Part shown: in pieces, positions 12,631-25,077 of the stretch | How the letters are laid out: each line of letters begins with the position of its first letter | Numbering within the stretch: position 1 is the stretch's first letter | Assembly: GCA_017998165.1 (NCBI GenBank) | Contig: JAGODO010000001.1 | Span: forward strand, 1 to 49,453 | Reading direction: 5' to 3' | DNA from: Flavobacteriales bacterium | Lineage (GTDB): Bacteria > Bacteroidota > Bacteroidia > Flavobacteriales_F > PHOS-HE28 | Length of the DNA: 49,453 nt | The notes under the pieces: generated by a model | Database searches by the model: none | Told to the model about the DNA's origin: nothing | What the model saw: only the letters and a program-made list of their open reading frames with translations | Program-made: the position numbers and the translations under genes

Positions 12631-13557
12631 TCATGAGCTCGCCAGCACCAACCGTGCCTTCTCCTTTCCGAGACGGATCGTCGCGATCGCACCGGAGTTG
12701 AACTTGAGATGGTCCGCAGCGATGCCATCGGAAAAGATCACGCCCTTGTCCGGCATCAATGACGTGATGGTGATCTCCTGCCCTGCTTTCAATCTGCCTG
12801 TAGTGACGGCGATGCCCGAGCGCCGGCTCTGGAACGGCTCGCGCACCACGAACTGGAGTTCATTCTCCCCGAGTCCTTTCGACTTTCTGGCCTTTTCCTG
12901 CGGACCCCGAAGGAGGCCATTGGCCATGTTGTACATCGAACTCAGCCAGCCCGTGCTGCCAGAGCGCGTGGATACCAGGATACCCGATGAGCTCTGCTCC
13001 TCTTCTTCCGCTCCGAACGTGATGCGGTAACGCGCCGAGGTATGATCGCTGATACCGATGAAGAGGTCGTTGAAGGCGAGCAACCGCTGGCCGTCGTTGA
13101 GGCGCGCTTCAGCCAAGGACGCATCGCGGTGCATGTAGGCGCCAGCGACCACGCGTTCCACGGCAGCAAGACAGGTCGCGGAATTGAAAGGCAGCAGCAC
13201 ACCGTCGTAGCGCTCGGGGTCCGGGTTCACGCCGATCATGGGACGGCCGCCGACGTACTTCGCTGCGTTCGCCAGCAGGCCGTCCTGACCGATGGTGATC
13301 ACCACCTGATCGTCGCTGAAGATGAACGACGGCAGGAAGGCGCGCTCCACCACCTTGTTCTTGATCGTCCGCGCCAAACTCCGCTGCACCTCGTCCAACG
13401 CGGTGTGGAATGCGTCGTGTTCGCGCTCGTAGTCCGTGAAGTCGCCACCGTTGCGCTCGATGTAGAAGCGTGCCTGCGACCGCGTGTTGAAGCGTTCCAC
13501 GAGCATCTCCAGCCGCGTGCGGCCCCGAACGATGATCGCGTATTCGATCCGCGTCAT
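12631..13557 (-). CDS. Divergent NAD kinase-fold (NADK/DAGK/PFK superfamily) protein
   Basis: NADK motif I is degenerate: VITIGQDGLL instead of GGDGT. The motif III equivalent is ILVSTRSGSTGWLSS, versus the TPTGSTAY consensus. The start ATG overlaps the upstream SPFH stop (ATGA). Confidence 0.65.
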   Translation of the reverse strand: MTRIEYAIIVRGRTRLEMLVERFNTRSQARFYIERNGGDFTDYEREHDAFHTALDEVQRSLARTIKNKVVERAFLPSFIFSDDQVVITIGQDGLLANAAKYVGGRPMIGVNPDPERYDGVLLPFNSATCLAAVERVVAGAYMHRDASLAEARLNDGQRLLAFNDLFIGISDHTSARYRITFGAEEEEQSSSGILVSTRSGSTGWLSSMYNMANGLLRGPQEKARKSKGLGENELQFVVREPFQSRRSGIAVTTGRLKAGQEITITSLMPDKGVIFSDGIAADHLKFNSGAIATIRLGKEKARLVLASS

Positions 13558-14570
13558 TTCTTCTCCTCCTTGCGCAGCAGCTGCTCCAGCAATTCGGGAC
13601 TGATGTTCAGCGTGCCCACTTTCCCTGCGTTCTCCGCCAGCTCGCGGAAGGCCATGGCGATGTTGGAGCGCGCGTCCTGTTCACCGCGCAAGGCCATCAG
13701 CATGCGCCAGTCCATTTCCTTGTAGGGCTTCAGTGTGGTCTCCAGTACGTAGCCCTGCGCATCGGCCTCCTTGCGCTCGTTCGCCGTCTTCTGGTCGATC
13801 AACATCTTGCGCTGATCTTCCACCGCGATGTCCGCCTGCACCTTCAGTTCGCGCAGCTTGCGTTCGTTCTCGGCCTTCTGCACGTCGCTCTCCATCACCT
13901 TCTCAGCGATCTGTTTGCGCTTCTCCTCAACCGCGATCTCCGTGTTCAGCTCGCTTTCCTTGATCTTCCGCTCCTGCTCCACAGCGAAGTTCCGCCGCTC
14001 GTAGATGGCCTGGTCCGCTTCCTGCTGCAGCAGTTCGCGCGTCCCTGTCTCCAGCGCCCGCGCCATTTCCGGCGAGGCTTTCACCGCCAGCACATTCACG
14101 GAGAGCACCTCCACCCCTAGCGCCGCGATGGCCGCTGAGCCCTTGATCCCCGTGCGGATCTGCTCCTCGATGGCCTTCGCTGAACGGATCGCGTCCTTCA
14201 GCCCGATGCCGTGGATGTAAGAAGCGGTGGCCGTCTGCGCCTCGTTGATGATGCGCTGGTTCAGCTTCTCCAGGTCGTTCTTCTTGTAGATGCCCCGGCC
14301 GTCCACGGTGAAGTCGAGCAATAAGGCGAGCTGCTTGGCGTCGGCCACTTTGTAGCTCACCTGGCCTTGGATGGAGATGCTCTGGTGATCACGCGTGGTC
14401 TCCGCGAAGATGAAGGGCAGGTCGTTGCTGCCCAACGGGATCGCCGCGATGGAGCTGCTGGGGGCGAAGTAGAAGAAGGACAGGCCCCTGCCTTCCTGCA
14501 CCACTTGGCCGTTCTTGTAGTGGATGACGTGCGTCATCGCGTCGAAGCTGATGTACTTGATGCCGAACAT
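13554..14570 (-). CDS. SPFH/band-7 (flotillin/stomatin-like) domain protein with long coiled-coil tail
   Basis: The N-terminal SPFH-like core runs FYFAPSSSIAAIPLG...GVEVLSVNVLAVKASPEMARALE. It is followed by a Glu/Lys/Ala-rich heptad region (ERKIKESELNTEIAVEEKRKQIAEK...). Confidence 0.8.
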   Translation of the reverse strand: MFGIKYISFDAMTHVIHYKNGQVVQEGRGLSFFYFAPSSSIAAIPLGSNDLPFIFAETTRDHQSISIQGQVSYKVADAKQLALLLDFTVDGRGIYKKNDLEKLNQRIINEAQTATASYIHGIGLKDAIRSAKAIEEQIRTGIKGSAAIAALGVEVLSVNVLAVKASPEMARALETGTRELLQQEADQAIYERRNFAVEQERKIKESELNTEIAVEEKRKQIAEKVMESDVQKAENERKLRELKVQADIAVEDQRKMLIDQKTANERKEADAQGYVLETTLKPYKEMDWRMLMALRGEQDARSNIAMAFRELAENAGKVGTLNISPELLEQLLRKEEKK

Positions 14571-14665: not shown

Positions 14666-15382
14666 TCAGGCTCCGGGGCGACGAAGAATGAACTTGCGCT
14701 GAACATTCTGACGAACATCCATACACAGCAATACGCCATCGAGGACCGGCCCGGTCTTCGACAGCAGCTTCAACACCTCGTTCGCTTGCAGGCTGCCGAT
14801 CACCGCGCAGGTGGTGGGCATGATGCCGGTATTCGCGCAGTTGAGCAACGCATCCGCGTAGAAGGCCGACAAGTCAAAGGCCTCGCGCAGGTGGAAGCCC
14901 CGCAGATGGTGGAGCACGGTGACGTAGCCCTCCCATCCCTGCGCGGTAGCGAAGGCCAGCGGAATGCGGTGCCCGCCGCAGGCAGCGTCGATGGCGAAGC
15001 GCGCTTCCAGGTTGTCCGTGCAATCGCAGACCACATTGCGGTCGGCGACCATGTGCGCCAGTACCTCGGTGAACGGCTCGGTGATGGCCTGGATACGGAC
15101 ATCCGGGTTCTGGATCTTCAACCGTTCGGCGAGCACGGCCGCTTTGAATGCGCCGACATCTTCATGTGCGAATTGGAACTGCCGGTGCAGGTTCGTCACG
15201 TCCACACGGTCCGGATCCATGATGGTGATCGAGCCGACACCAGCAGCGGCGAGCAACGTGGCAACGGACGTACCCAAGCCACCAGCACCGATGATCAGTA
15301 CACGTCCGTCGAGCAGCTTCGCCTGGGCTTCTTCACCGAAGCCTTCCACCGCGATCTGCTGCGTGTAGCGCGCCCCGCTCAC
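14666..15382 (-). CDS. ThiF/MoeB/HesA-family E1-like adenylyltransferase (short form, no zinc CxxC pairs, no rhodanese domain)
   Basis: Motifs present: RYTQQI, the Rossmann loop LIIGAGGLGTSVA, MDPDRVDVTNLHRQ, VCDCTDN, and the crossover-loop Cys region NCANTGIMPTTCAVIGSLQANEVLK. The GTG start overlaps the TGA of the upstream ORF (GTGA). Confidence 0.85.
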   Translation of the reverse strand: MSGARYTQQIAVEGFGEEAQAKLLDGRVLIIGAGGLGTSVATLLAAAGVGSITIMDPDRVDVTNLHRQFQFAHEDVGAFKAAVLAERLKIQNPDVRIQAITEPFTEVLAHMVADRNVVCDCTDNLEARFAIDAACGGHRIPLAFATAQGWEGYVTVLHHLRGFHLREAFDLSAFYADALLNCANTGIMPTTCAVIGSLQANEVLKLLSKTGPVLDGVLLCMDVRQNVQRKFILRRPGA

Positions 15383-17949
15383 TTCCGGTTGATCTGTGAA
15401 GTGATGGTACGGTCCGTGATCTTGTCGTCCTCAGCGAGCAGAAAGGCTTTGGAAATGATCACCGATAGACCAGAGTCACCTTCGAACGGCAGGAACAGGT
15501 TCTGTGTCGGCGCTTTGCTGCGGTCCGGTACGATGCACAGATACTGGTCGTTCGGCTCCATCAGGATGTTCGTGCTTCCAAGGTGGATCTTGTAGGTGCG
15601 GATCTTGCCTTTCACCACGAGGAATTTGTCCTGGATGCTGGAGACCTTGGCGATCTTCAAGCGCGGTAACAGGCCGGTGAGGATCTCCTTACGCGTCTTC
15701 GCCACTTCACCCAGATCACCGAAGGAGTAGCTCTGCCAATAGTCGCGGTAGCCCGGCAATGCGCCACCGCTGTCCTGCCATTCGGGATCGTTGCCCACGC
15801 TGGCCACGCCCACGAAGAGGTCCACATCGCGCATCACCTCACTGAAAGCCACCACCGGAACATCCACCAGGTCCATCGGATCCTCGTAGCCGATGCGCCC
15901 GAAACGCACCTGGTCCGTGGCCATGTAGGTCCAGATGCCCGTGTCGTTCGTCGCACCATCGGCGTTCACCTCGTTCAACCAGAACTGCGCGCCGATGCCG
16001 TGATCGGGCAGCGAAACGCTCGCCCATGACCCGTCCTGCCCGTTGTCGAATGCGCCCTGCAAGGCGTACTTCCAGCCGCGGGCCTTGGCCAGCGAGTTGA
16101 ACTGGTGCTGCTTGAGCAGATGCGCTGCCATGCGGTTGCTGTAACTGCGCGTGTTCATCTCCGCGTCCGTCAGCAGATACACCTCTCGGTACGCCTGTTT
16201 CAGCGGTTGGCGGATCTCACGCGCCATCATGAACTCGCGCCATGTGCGGACATCCGCGACGCTCGCCGTGGCTGGATGCCAAAGCGAAACGGACATCGTA
16301 TCCATCGGCGTGAAGGCGTCACCCTTCATGGTCGTCCATGCGCCGTCGACAAGGATGGCAGGCATGATGCGTTCTCCGTCATGGAAATTCCAGATGATGC
16401 GATTCGCCAGGAAGCCGAGCAGTCCATGTTCCACGAAATGCTCCCGGAAGTATGGCATTGCCATAACGCGCGTGCTCCGGAACATCCGGTCGATGCGGTC
16501 GCGCTGCGCGGTGGTGCCCAGGTCCACTTGCTTTACCGCGTCCTTCATCTTCTTCAGCTTGGCGGCGTGGCCTTCCTTCACCGCTGCGGGCACCGATTTC
16601 TGGGGCGTTCCATCGGGCTTCCGCCACTCCAGTTCGCTATCGCCGGGACCGGTCACGGTGAGCGTGGCGGTGTAGCCGTCGAAGTCCCATGCGCGCGACC
16701 CGTCCTTCAATCCCAGGTCATCGCAGGCCTGATCCTCGATCTCGTACACCGTGATGCCCTTGTCCGCCGCCGCTTCCGCGAGGTACCTATCGATCAGTGC
16801 CACCGTGCTGCTCTGCTTGATGCGCAGTTTCAAGCGGCTCAATTGCCCGATACCGTCCAAGCCCTTCGAGCGAAACAAGGTGAAGAGGCACGCGTTACCC
16901 ACAGCCATCGCGGCAGGGCCTTGTTGCGGGATCTTCCGGAAGCTCCGTTCCGCCAGTGCCGCAACCGTGGTGATCGTGCGCGCATCATGGAAGTGCGCGC
17001 ACATCCACACCAGACCCTTCAGCAGATCCATGCTCTGCGTGTGCAGGAACTCCGTGGTGGTGTAGGTCTGCTCGCGTCCGTTGTAGCGGTGAACGTGTTC
17101 CGTGGTCTTTTCCTTCAGTTTGATGACGAAGTCGAACCAGGTCATCACCTGTTGCTTGAACGCGTCCGCGCCCGGGCCGTCGATCAGGGTGCGGGATGCC
17201 GCGAGGTACTTCTCGCTCGGCTTGGATCCGCTCGCTTTCATGGCGTGGCCCAGGATCGGGTACCATTTGTCCCGCAACTCCGGTGACATCGCTTGTACCG
17301 CACTGTTCACTTCCGGAACGAACGGATCATCGCCTTTGATGAGCACCGGATGCACCTCGCCTTCCCCCGCCGGTCCCGCGATGATGGCGTTGATGCGGTC
17401 GATCAGCTTGATCCGCTCCTTCTCGCTCGAATAGTTGGTCGATCCGTTTACCGTGATCCGCGTCGCGATCAGCGTCGCGCGCAGTCCATCCGAAACGGGC
17501 TTCGCCTTGTGCTGGCGTTCGATGTGCGTGAACAGCATCCCGATCGGCCACGATAGCAAGTTGACGTTTCCCCAACGGCCGTGGGTCGAGAACGTGTCCA
17601 ACAAGCGCGCGACATCCGCGTCGTCCACTACCAGCGACGCCCGAAGTACCTGTTGCACCAAGGCGATGCGGAACTCATTCCGCATGTGGTCATCACTACC
17701 GAATGTGATCGAACGCCTACCGCTCTGCCATTGATGGGTGGCGCGAGCCAAGTAGTCGAGCAGGTCAACGCGCTTCTTGTCCGGCCACGTGGACACTGCT
17801 TCCGTCCAGGCCTTCATCGACGCGACCTTCAGGCCCGCATAGTTTCCACCGTTGGCCCGATGTTCCGCTTCCAGGTCGGCGATCACCCGATCATATTCCG
17901 GATGACCGCCCAAGCCGATGGCGCTCTTCAGTTTGTCCAGCAATCCCAT
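15379..17949 (-). CDS. Large (856 aa) uncharacterised protein, DUF4132-like (MolR/YehI-type) C-terminal two thirds
   Basis: Coding is clear: it is translationally coupled on both sides. The segments HGLLGFLANRIIWNF, WHPATAS...REIRQPLKQAYREVYLLTDAE and KIRTYKIHLGSTNILMEPNDQYLCIVPD...LFLPFEGDSGLSVIISKAFLLAEDDKITD match my recollection of DUF4132-containing proteins. I saw no E2 HPN-Cys or JAMM motif. Confidence 0.55.
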   Translation of the reverse strand: MGLLDKLKSAIGLGGHPEYDRVIADLEAEHRANGGNYAGLKVASMKAWTEAVSTWPDKKRVDLLDYLARATHQWQSGRRSITFGSDDHMRNEFRIALVQQVLRASLVVDDADVARLLDTFSTHGRWGNVNLLSWPIGMLFTHIERQHKAKPVSDGLRATLIATRITVNGSTNYSSEKERIKLIDRINAIIAGPAGEGEVHPVLIKGDDPFVPEVNSAVQAMSPELRDKWYPILGHAMKASGSKPSEKYLAASRTLIDGPGADAFKQQVMTWFDFVIKLKEKTTEHVHRYNGREQTYTTTEFLHTQSMDLLKGLVWMCAHFHDARTITTVAALAERSFRKIPQQGPAAMAVGNACLFTLFRSKGLDGIGQLSRLKLRIKQSSTVALIDRYLAEAAADKGITVYEIEDQACDDLGLKDGSRAWDFDGYTATLTVTGPGDSELEWRKPDGTPQKSVPAAVKEGHAAKLKKMKDAVKQVDLGTTAQRDRIDRMFRSTRVMAMPYFREHFVEHGLLGFLANRIIWNFHDGERIMPAILVDGAWTTMKGDAFTPMDTMSVSLWHPATASVADVRTWREFMMAREIRQPLKQAYREVYLLTDAEMNTRSYSNRMAAHLLKQHQFNSLAKARGWKYALQGAFDNGQDGSWASVSLPDHGIGAQFWLNEVNADGATNDTGIWTYMATDQVRFGRIGYEDPMDLVDVPVVAFSEVMRDVDLFVGVASVGNDPEWQDSGGALPGYRDYWQSYSFGDLGEVAKTRKEILTGLLPRLKIAKVSSIQDKFLVVKGKIRTYKIHLGSTNILMEPNDQYLCIVPDRSKAPTQNLFLPFEGDSGLSVIISKAFLLAEDDKITDRTITSQINRK

Positions 17950-17951
17950 CG

Positions 17952-18341
17952 CTATCCGCCCACCAACGGCGTAAGTTTCACGAAGCTGATGCGCGTGCTC
18001 TTGCTCAGGCGCACTTCCTCTTCCAGCGTTTCGGCCTGCCGGTCATCCACCAGCATGAAGAAGACGTTGCGCGTGAACGCATCCAGCGCGACGTACACCT
18101 GCTTCTCGCCGTCCACCGCGCGCTTGTTCTTCAGCTTGAAGCCGTTCAGCGTGCGCTCGGCATCACTGGGCTCCACAAGGCCATTGAAGAACTCCGGGCG
18201 CTTATCGTTGTAACGCCGCACTTCTTCCAGCACGCGGGCTTCGATGATGTCCCGGACGGTAACGAGCTCACTGGCGAATTCCAGTTCGATCTCGTTCAGG
18301 ATGTCCCCGGCGAAGGTCTCGTCCTTGATGGCGATGAGCAT
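17952..18341 (-). CDS. Ubiquitin-like/MoaD-ThiS-like candidate, 129 aa, ending in Gly-Gly-stop
   Basis: ATG start. The C-terminus ...RISFVKLTPLVGG is followed directly by TAG. The N-terminal strand-strand-helix pattern (MLIAIKDE, ILNEIELEF, VTVRDIIEARVLEEV) is consistent with a beta-grasp. It lies 2 nt upstream of the next ORF and two genes from the E1. Confidence 0.6.
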   Translation of the reverse strand: MLIAIKDETFAGDILNEIELEFASELVTVRDIIEARVLEEVRRYNDKRPEFFNGLVEPSDAERTLNGFKLKNKRAVDGEKQVYVALDAFTRNVFFMLVDDRQAETLEEEVRLSKSTRISFVKLTPLVGG

Positions 18342-22983: not shown

Positions 22984-23015
22984 ATGCCGAAGATAGCGGG
23001 GCTATTTTGCGGCGG

Positions 23016-24044
23016 ATGGTGCGGACATGGCCAATTACTGAATGGTTGAGCGCAGCAGCGCCCATGATCGATGTCCGATCGCCGGGCGAGTTCGCGCGCG
23101 GTCATATTCCCGGCGCCACCAACATCCCGCTCTTCAGCGATGATGAGCGCGCCGTGGTCGGCACCCTCTACAAGCAGAGCGGACGTGATGCGGCCATGCT
23201 GGAAGGATTGCGCATCGTTGGCCCGAAGCTGGCCCCCATGGTCGAACAGGCCCGTACCATCGCTGCGGAGGGACGCATCCGGGTACACTGCTGGCGCGGA
23301 GGGGAGCGCAGCGGAAGCGTCGCGTGGCTGCTCGACAAGTCGGGCTTCCACGAAGTCACGACACTGAAGGGCGGGTACAAGTCCTTCCGCAACCAGGTGC
23401 TGAACGCGTTCAACGCACCGGTCGATCTGCGTGTGCTCGGAGGTTACACCGGCACAGGCAAGACAGCGTTGCTCGGGTACCTGCGCAACATGGGCGAACA
23501 GGTGATCGATCTGGAAGCGCTCGCACATCACAAGGGCTCGTCCTATGGGGCCATCGGCGAGCTCCCCCAGCCGACCACTGAGCACTTCGAGAACCTGCTG
23601 TGGAACGAACTCCGCCACCGCGATGCGACGCGACCGCTCTGGGTGGAGGATGAAAGCCTGATGATCGGCCGGACCAAGATCCCCGAGCCGTTCTTCGAAC
23701 AGATGCGCGGCGCCCTGCTCTTCTTCGCCGATATGCCCAGGACAGAACGTGCCGCCCGATTGGTCACCGATTACGGGAAATACCCGAAGGAACAACTCGC
23801 CGAAGCGACGAAGCGCATCGAGAAGCGGCTCGGCCCCCAGAATTGCAAGACCGCACTCACCGCGCTTGAGGCCGATGATCTCTTCACCGTGGCGATGATC
23901 ACGCTGACTTACTACGACAAGACCTATCTGCGTGGCGCTTCGCTCAGGGATCCAGCGCACGTGATCAACCTGCCCGCTTCGGCGAACGATCTTCGCGGCT
24001 TGGCCGAACGGCTCATCGCCCATGTCCACGCTCCCCGCCACTGA
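23016..24044 (+). CDS. selU: tRNA 2-selenouridine(34) synthase
   Basis: Rhodanese domain with active-site CWRGGERS. P-loop GGYTGTGKT. DVRSPGEFARGHIPGATNIPL at the N-terminus. Confidence 0.85.
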   Translation: MVRTWPITEWLSAAAPMIDVRSPGEFARGHIPGATNIPLFSDDERAVVGTLYKQSGRDAAMLEGLRIVGPKLAPMVEQARTIAAEGRIRVHCWRGGERSGSVAWLLDKSGFHEVTTLKGGYKSFRNQVLNAFNAPVDLRVLGGYTGTGKTALLGYLRNMGEQVIDLEALAHHKGSSYGAIGELPQPTTEHFENLLWNELRHRDATRPLWVEDESLMIGRTKIPEPFFEQMRGALLFFADMPRTERAARLVTDYGKYPKEQLAEATKRIEKRLGPQNCKTALTALEADDLFTVAMITLTYYDKTYLRGASLRDPAHVINLPASANDLRGLAERLIAHVHAPRH

Positions 24045-25077
24045 ACCCGTGTGCCTCACACAGCATAGCCATGGCGCGGGCTGTGGCTGCAAGATCGCGC
24101 CCGCCCAGCTGGAGATCATCCTGAAAAGCGCGTTGGGCACCTTGCCGGATCCCAAACTGCTGGTGGGCTACGGCAGCCGGGATGATGCGGCCGTGTACGA
24201 CCTGGGCGACGGCCGCTGCGTGATCAGTACGACGGACTTCTTCTCCCCCATCGTCGACGATGCGTTCGACTTCGGTCGGATCGCCGCGACCAATGCCGTG
24301 TCCGATGTGTATGCGATGGGAGGACGGCCCTTGCTGGCCATCGCGATCCTGGGCTGGCCCGTGGAAAAACTCGGCCCCGATCTTGCGCAGCAGGTGGTGG
24401 AAGGCGGACGACGCGCGTGCCACGACATGGGCATACCGCTCGCAGGCGGCCACAGCATCGATGCGCCGGAACCGTTCTTCGGCCTGGCTGTGACCGGTGA
24501 AGTGCGCAAGGAGCATCTCAAACGCAACGACACAGCGCACGCCGGAGATGTCATCTTCCTGACGAAACCGATCGGTATCGGCCTGTTGAGCACCGCGCAG
24601 AAACGGGGCAAGCTCCGGCCGGAACACGCCCACGTCGCCCGGGACCTGATGGTGATGCCCAACAGCATCGGTACGCGGCTCGGCGAACGTTCCGGAGTGC
24701 ATGCCCTCACCGACGTCACCGGGTTCGGCCTTGCCGGGCACCTGCTCGAAATGTGCCGGGGCGCCGGTCTGGGGGCCCGCATCCGATTCGATGACATCCC
24801 TCGGATACCAGAGGCCCTGATCTACCTGAATGAAGGTTGTTTTCCGGATGGTTCCTTCCGCACGTGGAAGAGCTGCGCCGGAGAGATACAGGGCGCATCG
24901 TCGATGGAAAGGATGCTGTTCATGGCCGACCCCCAGACGAGCGGTGGCCTGCTCATCGCATGCGCACCGGAGGCGAGCGGCGAGGTGAGCGCGATGCTGG
25001 GATCCGCGGGCCTTGCGTCGAAGATGATCGGCGTTTTCGAACCCGCCCAGGGAGCTCCCGGCGTGTTTGTCGAATAG
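24022..25077 (+). CDS. selD: Selenide, water dikinase (selenophosphate synthetase), Cys-type
   Basis: N-terminal SHGAGCGCKI loop, with Cys rather than a UGA/Sec codon. AIR-synthase-like fold motifs are present (DDAAVY, GGHSID). It overlaps selU by 23 nt. Confidence 0.9.
   Translation: MSTLPATEPVCLTQHSHGAGCGCKIAPAQLEIILKSALGTLPDPKLLVGYGSRDDAAVYDLGDGRCVISTTDFFSPIVDDAFDFGRIAATNAVSDVYAMGGRPLLAIAILGWPVEKLGPDLAQQVVEGGRRACHDMGIPLAGGHSIDAPEPFFGLAVTGEVRKEHLKRNDTAHAGDVIFLTKPIGIGLLSTAQKRGKLRPEHAHVARDLMVMPNSIGTRLGERSGVHALTDVTGFGLAGHLLEMCRGAGLGARIRFDDIPRIPEALIYLNEGCFPDGSFRTWKSCAGEIQGASSMERMLFMADPQTSGGLLIACAPEASGEVSAMLGSAGLASKMIGVFEPAQGAPGVFVE

Follow-up and report, generated by a model that had tools for sequence, protein, structure and literature searches.

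A predicted ubiquitin-like protein with a conserved insert, encoded beside DUF4132-DUF7737 proteins in Bacteroidota and other bacteria

Bacterial ubiquitin-like proteins (Ubls) are known as sulfur carriers, such as ThiS and MoaD, and more recently as modifiers in anti-phage operons that hold a recognisable E2 and JAB. Among the sulfur carriers, ThiS is a protein of only 66 amino acids (aa) that forms an acyl-disulfide with C184 of its E1-like enzyme ThiF, and in Escherichia coli moaD lies with moaE, apart from moeB. Here, we describe a Ubl locus from a Flavobacteriales bacterium, found in a stretch of 49,453 nucleotides (assembly GCA_017998165.1, contig JAGODO010000001.1, positions 1 to 49,453 of the forward strand) that we call the window. 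An open reading frame (ORF) of 129 aa at positions 17952-18341 is most likely the Ubl of an unannotated and widespread bacterial family, whose hallmarks are a length of about 130 aa, an unprocessed and near-invariant C-terminal Gly-Gly, and a conserved insertion of about 31 residues that, together with a second helix, separates helix 1 from strand 3. The gene forms a near-obligatory pair with a gene for a large protein carrying the domains DUF4132 and DUF7737, and in the window this pair is followed by a putative E1. By analogy, the module would count as a Ubl/E1 system in which both the Ubl and the partner come from new families, and would work most like the MoaD/MoeB, ThiS/ThiF or SAMP/UbaA pairs.

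The Ubl gene and its operon

The ORF is a real gene and not a chance ORF. A preliminary description of the window, made from the DNA letters and their ORFs, had proposed it as a Ubl candidate, and the coordinates, size and segments quoted there are all present on the minus strand. It is the first gene of a compact minus-strand operon, in which it is followed by the gene of an 856-aa DUF4132-DUF7737 protein and then by a gene for a ThiF/MoeB-type E1. Only 2 nucleotides separate the stop of the Ubl gene from the start of its partner, the partner and E1 genes overlap by 4 nucleotides, and the three-gene operon is translationally coupled in the window. A scan for promoters and terminators returned no promoter-like site, and terminator-like sites at chance level. 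The operon comprises the following features, all on the minus strand.

17952-18341, minus strand: Ubl gene, 129 aa, ATG start, TAG stop at 17952-17954, a predicted single beta-grasp ending in ...SFVKLTPLVGG
18204-18341, minus strand: Ubl residues 1-46, predicted strands b1 (2-8) and b2 (14-21), short strand 26-28 and helix a1 (29-46), at a predicted local distance difference test score (pLDDT) of 88-95
18111-18203, minus strand: Ubl residues 47-77 (KRPEFFNGLVEPSDAERTLNGFKLKNKRAVD), the insert, predicted as loop, short helix 60-65 and loop, pLDDT about 50
17976-18110, minus strand: Ubl residues 78-122, predicted helix 78-90 and strands 94-98, 109-111 and 118-122, pLDDT 92-95
17955-17975, minus strand: Ubl tail LTPLVGG, residues 123-129, the presumed adenylation site and the most conserved segment of the family
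15379-17949, minus strand: partner gene, 856 aa, with a helical repeat solenoid in the N-terminal ~410 residues and a mixed alpha/beta C-terminal half
16072-16611, minus strand: DUF4132 domain, partner residues 447-626 (Pfam E=9e-39)
15391-15702, minus strand: DUF7737 domain, partner residues 750-853 (Pfam E=2e-40), with His789 at 15583-15585 and Cys805 at 15535-15537
14666-15382, minus strand: E1 gene, 238 aa, ThiF family (Pfam E=2e-59), with Cys182 at 14837-14839

A Pfam scan detected no E2, JAB, other deubiquitinase, rhodanese, ThiG or MoaE within the window cassette, and E2 was sought with PADLOC and NCBIfam models as well.

The Ubl family itself is large. In a database of 5.8 billion proteins, 376 relatives were found at E<=1e-3; identity among the 120 close relatives listed runs from 60 to 97%, and 87 of them have exactly 129 aa. 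Searching 1.84 billion cluster representatives with a profile gave 1,857 clusters (at 50% identity) at E<=1e-3, 849 of them at E<=1e-10, with family lengths mostly of 129-135 aa. The terminal Gly-Gly is present in 119 of the 120 close relatives, in 143 of 150 cluster representatives at 50% identity and in all 119 members of a distant high-GC branch; over the three lists combined it ends 381 of the 389 relatives listed, and the few that lack it are truncated or frameshifted predictions. Because both this ending and the length are conserved in hundreds of independent assemblies, the TAG stop is authentic, and the sequencing error at that codon, or the wrong frame, which the preliminary description had considered, is excluded. 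Existing models do not capture the window protein: it has no match in Pfam at E<=0.1, ThiS (PF02597) included, and none in PADLOC, while NCBIfam gave a single sub-threshold line that is meaningless (E=0.008; 16 bits, where the cut-off is 125).

Predicted fold and conserved insert

The AlphaFold2 model of the Ubl, built on an alignment of 39 sequences, has a mean pLDDT of 81.7 and a predicted TM score of 0.73, with the blocks outside residues 47-77 at pLDDT 88-95. The chain runs through strands 2-8 and 14-21, a short strand at 26-28 and a helix at 29-46, then through the low-confidence stretch 47-77 to a helix at 78-90, strands 94-98, 109-111 and 118-122, and a free tail at 123-129. In the model, the Ubl is one beta-grasp whose halves are parted by extra sequence, and not two domains. 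This is the topology that the preliminary description had put forward as one possibility, a single beta-grasp with an insertion, the other being a helical elaboration for recognising a partner: its N-terminal segment, read as the first half of the fold, corresponds to the strands 2-8 and 14-21 and helix 29-46, its C-terminal segment to the last three strands and the free tail, and the MoaD/ThiS-like ending that it pointed out, a hydrophobic strand followed by P-x-x-GG, turns out to be the most conserved part of the family. When the model was compared with PDB structures by Foldseek, the top matches were nearly all beta-grasp proteins, namely MoaD (1fm0_D, 6jbz_B, 3rpf_C, 1jwb_D and 5mpo), ubiquitin, SUMO, Urm1, ISG15 and a bacterial multi-ubiquitin protein. 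The structural comparison, which had been proposed as a check, is consistent with a beta-grasp but not statistically strong (best E 0.024). On this model, a beta-grasp assignment of the Ubl is likely.

The preliminary description had also noted a long internal insert rich in charged residues between the two halves. Extra sequence is indeed there, as a loop, a helix at 60-65 and a further loop followed by helix 78-90, but it is not merely a charged linker. Over an alignment of 64 sequences, whose members are 33-59% identical to the window protein, the mean frequency of the top residue is 0.52 in the insert region (47-92), as against 0.49 in the N-terminal core (1-46), 0.56 in the C-terminal core and 0.86 in the tail. 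These values rule out a variable linker: the insert is as conserved as the core and nearly fixed in length, the only indels being short insertions that follow residues 49 and 67, which answers the earlier question of whether it is conserved or variable. At the same range of identity, L55, P58, E62, N66, D77, Q81 and F89 are at least 90% conserved and A85 is invariant, so that most of the family signature lies within the insert region, as G-L-V-x-P (54-58), E62, L-N-G (65-67), D77, Q81, A85 and F89. The motifs are kept in the Ubl of Actinomadura and partly kept in that of Novosphingobium. By its conservation pattern, the insert is a fixed structural or functional element and not a charged spacer. 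Taken together, its low model confidence and its high conservation suggest that it may become ordered only upon binding a partner.

The module in other genomes and its relation to described systems

The gene neighbourhood was surveyed with one genome per species; 460 genomes encode a Ubl relative, 80 loci were fetched, and neighbouring genes were counted over 83 loci. A DUF4132-DUF7737 gene adjoins the Ubl gene in 77 of them and a ThiF gene in 36. All-against-all ORF clustering recovered the Ubl, DUF4132-DUF7737 and ThiF as the only recurrent families; no rhodanese, cysteine desulfurase, ThiG/MoaE-like, biosynthetic, sulfur-donor, E2, JAB or deubiquitinase family recurs near the module in these loci, and the flanks of the cassette vary between loci, close relatives included. 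The conserved core is a two-gene module of the Ubl and the DUF4132-DUF7737 protein, whose adjacency is near-obligatory, and the dedicated E1 is an addition in a subset of Bacteroidota, the window included.

The pair occurs in Bacteroidota, Actinomycetota and Alphaproteobacteria. A locus of Actinomadura (L084, 2203-8393) carries three DUF4132-DUF7737 paralogs of 726, 411 and 767 aa followed by the Ubl, metagenome contigs of high GC content carry the Ubl followed by its partner, and on a Novosphingobium megaplasmid a Ubl ending in ...PLKGG overlaps an 843-aa DUF4132-DUF7737 gene. Since the insert is conserved wherever the partner is present, with or without an adjacent E1, we regard it as a putative partner-recognition surface, and the protein it recognises is most plausibly the DUF4132-DUF7737 protein, which accompanies the Ubl in all three of these phyla, whereas the E1 is adjacent in less than half of the loci. 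Partner residues 712-746 (15712-15816) and Ubl residues 47-77 (18111-18203) are both highly conserved, with pLDDT of 35-55, and they are candidates for a joint interface that would become folded only once the complex forms.

Several loci vary this arrangement. In Rapidithrix (L043, 1264-13808), four tandem DUF4132-DUF7737 genes of about 870 aa surround one Ubl, and the 411-aa paralog of Actinomadura lacks the conserved Cys. On a Fulvitalea megaplasmid (L091, 935-6049) the Ubl/DUF4132 pair stands beside a 1,704-aa DUF5724 protein and a leucine-rich-repeat protein. One protein of 969 aa (P0203) appears to fuse DUF4132 with the Ubl; the DUF4132 C-terminal sequence before the Ubl looks out of frame, so the fusion is probably a frameshift or gene-calling artefact, and it shows the reversed order of partner and then Ubl. 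A phage or plasmid origin of the family was also considered and rejected, as no Ubl relative was found in IMG/VR with the patterns used or in GenBank phages, and only four large replicons of PLSDB carry one.

The window E1 can be aligned over its whole length with ThiF and MoeB of E. coli (E ~4e-37). Its Cys182 aligns with C184 of ThiF and C187 of MoeB, while Arg67 and Asp123 correspond to Arg73 and Asp130 of MoeB. The glycine-rich loop AGGLG, R67 and D123 are invariant in all 37 cassette E1s and Cys182 is present in 36, and by these residues the putative enzyme retains the adenylation core. Its scores fall under every NCBIfam equivalog cut-off for ThiF and MoeB (190.9 against 275 for ThiF; 153 against 377 for MoeB), which places it in a separate clade of minimal E1-like enzymes, and the E1-E2 models of PADLOC match it partially, through the adenylation domain only. 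Between the window and locus L005, amino acid identity is 95% for the Ubl and 94% for the partner and only 56% for ThiF, a fast divergence that points to allele exchange, or else to selection on the E1 that is relaxed or diversifying.

The partner protein was modelled by AlphaFold2 at a pLDDT of 76.7, and Foldseek matched the model only to helical-repeat proteins of the HEAT/ARM type, through the N-terminal half; PADLOC has no match for it. For DUF7737, the model places a helix (746-763) ahead of five short strands (770-804), after which come a loop and two helices. Across aligned members from Bacteroidota, Actinomadura and other high-GC lineages, His789 is invariant and Cys805 is kept except in one degenerate short paralog, while Cys317 of the partner is not conserved outside Bacteroidota. 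The order of helix, beta-meander, Cys and helices, together with the His...Cys pair, had suggested DUF7737 as an E2, a candidate to which sequence tests gave no support. A resemblance of the modelled domain to acyl-transfer domains such as E2s may still be followed as a speculative lead.

How does this locus compare with the described systems? Like MoaD-MoaE/MoeB and ThiS/ThiF, it has a small, predicted beta-grasp protein with an unprocessed Gly-Gly on a flexible tail, a stand-alone ThiF/MoeB-type E1 of about 240 aa with an equivalent of ThiF C184, and, as in the MoaD-MoaE/MoeB arrangement, a Ubl gene beside the gene of its user protein (77 of 83 loci), with the E1 possibly encoded elsewhere. 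It differs in that the window Ubl has 129 aa where MoaD and ThiS have 66-81, an excess due to the conserved insert and the extra helix, and in that the Ubl matches neither Pfam ThiS nor the MoaD and ThiS sequences of the PDB. In place of MoaE or ThiG, the partner is an 856-aa protein of solenoid, DUF4132 and DUF7737, genes for sulfur donors or cofactor biosynthesis are lacking nearby, and the window E1, unlike ThiF and MoeB, has no zinc CxxC motifs and carries Gln at the position of MoeB Arg14.

SAMP/UbaA, TtuB/TtuC of Thermus and Urm1/Uba4 likewise combine a Gly-Gly-terminated Ubl with a single E1-like enzyme whose cysteine is conserved, E2, E3 and JAB all being missing from the operon, and Urm1 is among the Foldseek matches of our Ubl. 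However, the near-obligatory large partner and the conserved insert set the present family apart, no sequence relationship is detectable, and the window E1 lacks the rhodanese domain of Uba4. With Bil, Bub, CBASS Cap2/Cap3 and the 6E/6A-MBL operons the locus has in common that a single operon encodes both a Ubl and an E1-type adenylation domain, but no E2/UBC, JAB or deubiquitinase was detectable in the cassette by Pfam, PADLOC or hhalign, neither the Ubl nor the partner has a PADLOC match, and the family was not found on the phages searched. To our knowledge, the DUF4132-DUF7737 family belongs to no described system.

The DUF4132 region is shared with E. coli YehI and YehH (MolR) (BLASTP E=1e-11, partner residues 341-604). 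By BLASTP, the alignment of YehI to the partner ends at its residue 604, upstream of DUF7737, and the neighbours of YehI are MoxR, VWA and SWIM genes, unlike those of the window cassette. YehK, a small gene product encoded beside YehI, was considered as a counterpart of the Ubl and is unrelated (hhalign probability 0.2%). A full-text literature search returned no paper in which DUF4132 or DUF7737 is linked to a Ubl or an E1; the DUF4132 papers found are unrelated, and no paper mentions DUF7737.

Two further pairs of genes in the window should be mentioned. About 95 nucleotides downstream of the E1 and on the same strand, an SPFH/Band_7 gene (13554-14570, minus strand) overlaps by 4 nucleotides a 308-aa gene with weak NAD-kinase similarity (12631-13557, minus strand), neither with a PADLOC match. 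This pair stands beside the cassette in only one of the 83 loci, that of the close relative L007, where the two proteins are 95% and 93% identical, which rules it out as part of the conserved module, and it may be a separate two-gene module. Some 5 kb from the cassette, and not conserved with it, a rhodanese-domain protein (23007-24044, plus strand) overlaps an AIR-synthase-related, SelD-like protein (24022-25077, plus strand); by eye, they look like a selenouridine synthase and a selenophosphate synthetase.

Possible roles of the Ubl and its partner

What is shown is gene adjacency, sequence conservation and a predicted fold; from these we infer a chemistry, to which we give about an even chance, in which the Ubl is activated at its C-terminus, dedicated to the DUF4132-DUF7737 partner and attached covalently. 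The E1 would bind the Ubl and adenylate Gly129, possibly with transfer to its own Cys182, and the activated Ubl would then pass to the DUF4132-DUF7737 protein, which would recognise the conserved insert and receive the tail at the His789/Cys805 site of DUF7737. The Ubl could finally be attached either to its partner or to a client that the N-terminal helical solenoid of the partner holds. Loci lacking an adjacent E1 would depend on a MoeB/ThiF-type E1 encoded at another place. We favour covalent attachment, either independent of an E2 or by way of Cys805, because the partner is scaffold-like and no sulfur-metabolism genes co-occur with the module. A stronger form of this proposal, rather unlikely in our judgement, is that the Ubl, DUF7737 and the ThiF-type E1 make up a complete minimal conjugation pathway of a new type, in which DUF7737 (His789...Cys805) would be thioester-forming and E2-like or transpeptidase-like, the insert would dock and the HEAT-like solenoid would select the targets; such a pathway would have no relation to Bil, Bub and CBASS, and would be found widely among free-living Bacteroidota, Actinomycetota and Proteobacteria.

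Several observations weigh against the main proposal. The fold assignment of the Ubl depends on one AlphaFold2 model and on weak Foldseek scores, which range over E 0.02-0.2 in the PDB with target-normalised TM scores of 0.43-0.58; a library of viral structures gave similarly weak matches, among them a viral ubiquitin, the Rad23 UBL and a SUMO-like protein, which agree weakly with a beta-grasp, and over both comparisons the best E is 0.02-0.03 and none lies below 1e-3. By sequence, no MoaD, ThiS or ubiquitin chain of the PDB was found at E<=10 with the single protein, with a family profile of 64 sequences or with a profile from which the insert was excised, all of which returned only chance matches. 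On the side of the enzyme, Gln replaces MoeB Arg14, an ATP-contacting residue, in 24 of the 37 cassette E1s including that of the window, the clade of cassette E1s lacks both CxxC zinc motifs, and the window E1 also lacks any rhodanese domain. No ThiF is adjacent at any of the non-Bacteroidota loci inspected (Actinomadura, the high-GC contigs and Novosphingobium), and with an E1 adjacent in less than half of all loci, C-terminal activation is not demonstrably family-wide. As for the acceptor, the role of Cys805 in forming a thioester is conjecture: the DUF7737 region matches nothing but DUF7737 in Pfam at E<=10, its profile has no match in the PDB, and hhalign against the E2s UbcH5B, Ubc9 and Ubc13 gave a probability of 0.2%. 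Conjugation, sulfur carriage and purely non-covalent binding are all compatible with the evidence at hand.

Sulfur carriage in the manner of ThiS, MoaD, CysO or QbsE is improbable to a similar degree as the complete pathway, yet deserves attention. Gly129 would be adenylated and converted by a sulfur donor into a thiocarboxylate, and the partner would take the role of MoaE or ThiG, thiolating a small molecule or a nucleic acid by means of the Ubl tail inserted into it. That MoaD chains are the best structural matches of the Ubl speaks for it, as do the similarity of the E1 to ThiF and MoeB (E=4e-37) with Cys182 at the place of ThiF C184, the terminal Gly-Gly that requires no processing, and a gene order with the carrier beside its user protein and the E1 often elsewhere, as for moaD-moaE and moeB. 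However, biosynthetic genes, be they for a rhodanese, a cysteine desulfurase, a ThiG/MoaE-like protein or others, do not recur around the module in the 83 loci, the HEAT/ARM-like solenoid in the N-terminal half of the partner is typical of protein-protein scaffolds, the E1 falls below all ThiF and MoeB equivalog cut-offs, and the Ubl does not match Pfam ThiS.

It is unlikely that the Ubl acts solely as a non-covalent subunit or regulator, binding the partner through its insert and tail, with the Gly-Gly kept for binding and the E1 a lineage-specific addition in some Bacteroidota. Such a role would agree with the occurrence of the pair in three phyla, as against an E1 that adjoins it in 36 of 83 loci, all those inspected outside Bacteroidota being without one, and the expansion of partner paralogs around a single Ubl would fit a shared binding subunit. 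We consider it the less likely because the terminal Gly-Gly is almost invariant: placed exactly at the end of the chain, it is a hallmark of C-terminal activation that binding alone hardly explains, and the window and 35 other loci couple the pair translationally to an E1 of its own. Finally, a length about twice that of ThiS might have implied a tandem of two small beta-grasp domains, or an error in frame or stop. Both are effectively refuted, as the model shows one sheet built from both chain ends, one long helix and an inserted region with no repeated b-b-a-b-b unit, and the assemblies agree on both length and ending.

Whichever role applies, this Ubl family fits neither the sulfur carriers nor the anti-phage modifiers, given its free terminal Gly-Gly, its often dedicated E1 and its companion of two DUF domains, and its conserved insert is absent from the known families compared (ThiS, MoaD and ubiquitin). 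Being small and widespread, and occurring in genera that can be cultured (Flavobacterium, Pedobacter, Mucilaginibacter, Actinomadura and Novosphingobium), the module is directly testable. Were the Ubl a sulfur carrier, it would point to an unknown thiolation pathway. If conjugation is true, the module would represent a new branch of prokaryotic ubiquitin-like signalling, either independent of an E2 or with a new one, and would give a first functional handle on DUF4132, which includes E. coli YehI/MolR, and on DUF7737.

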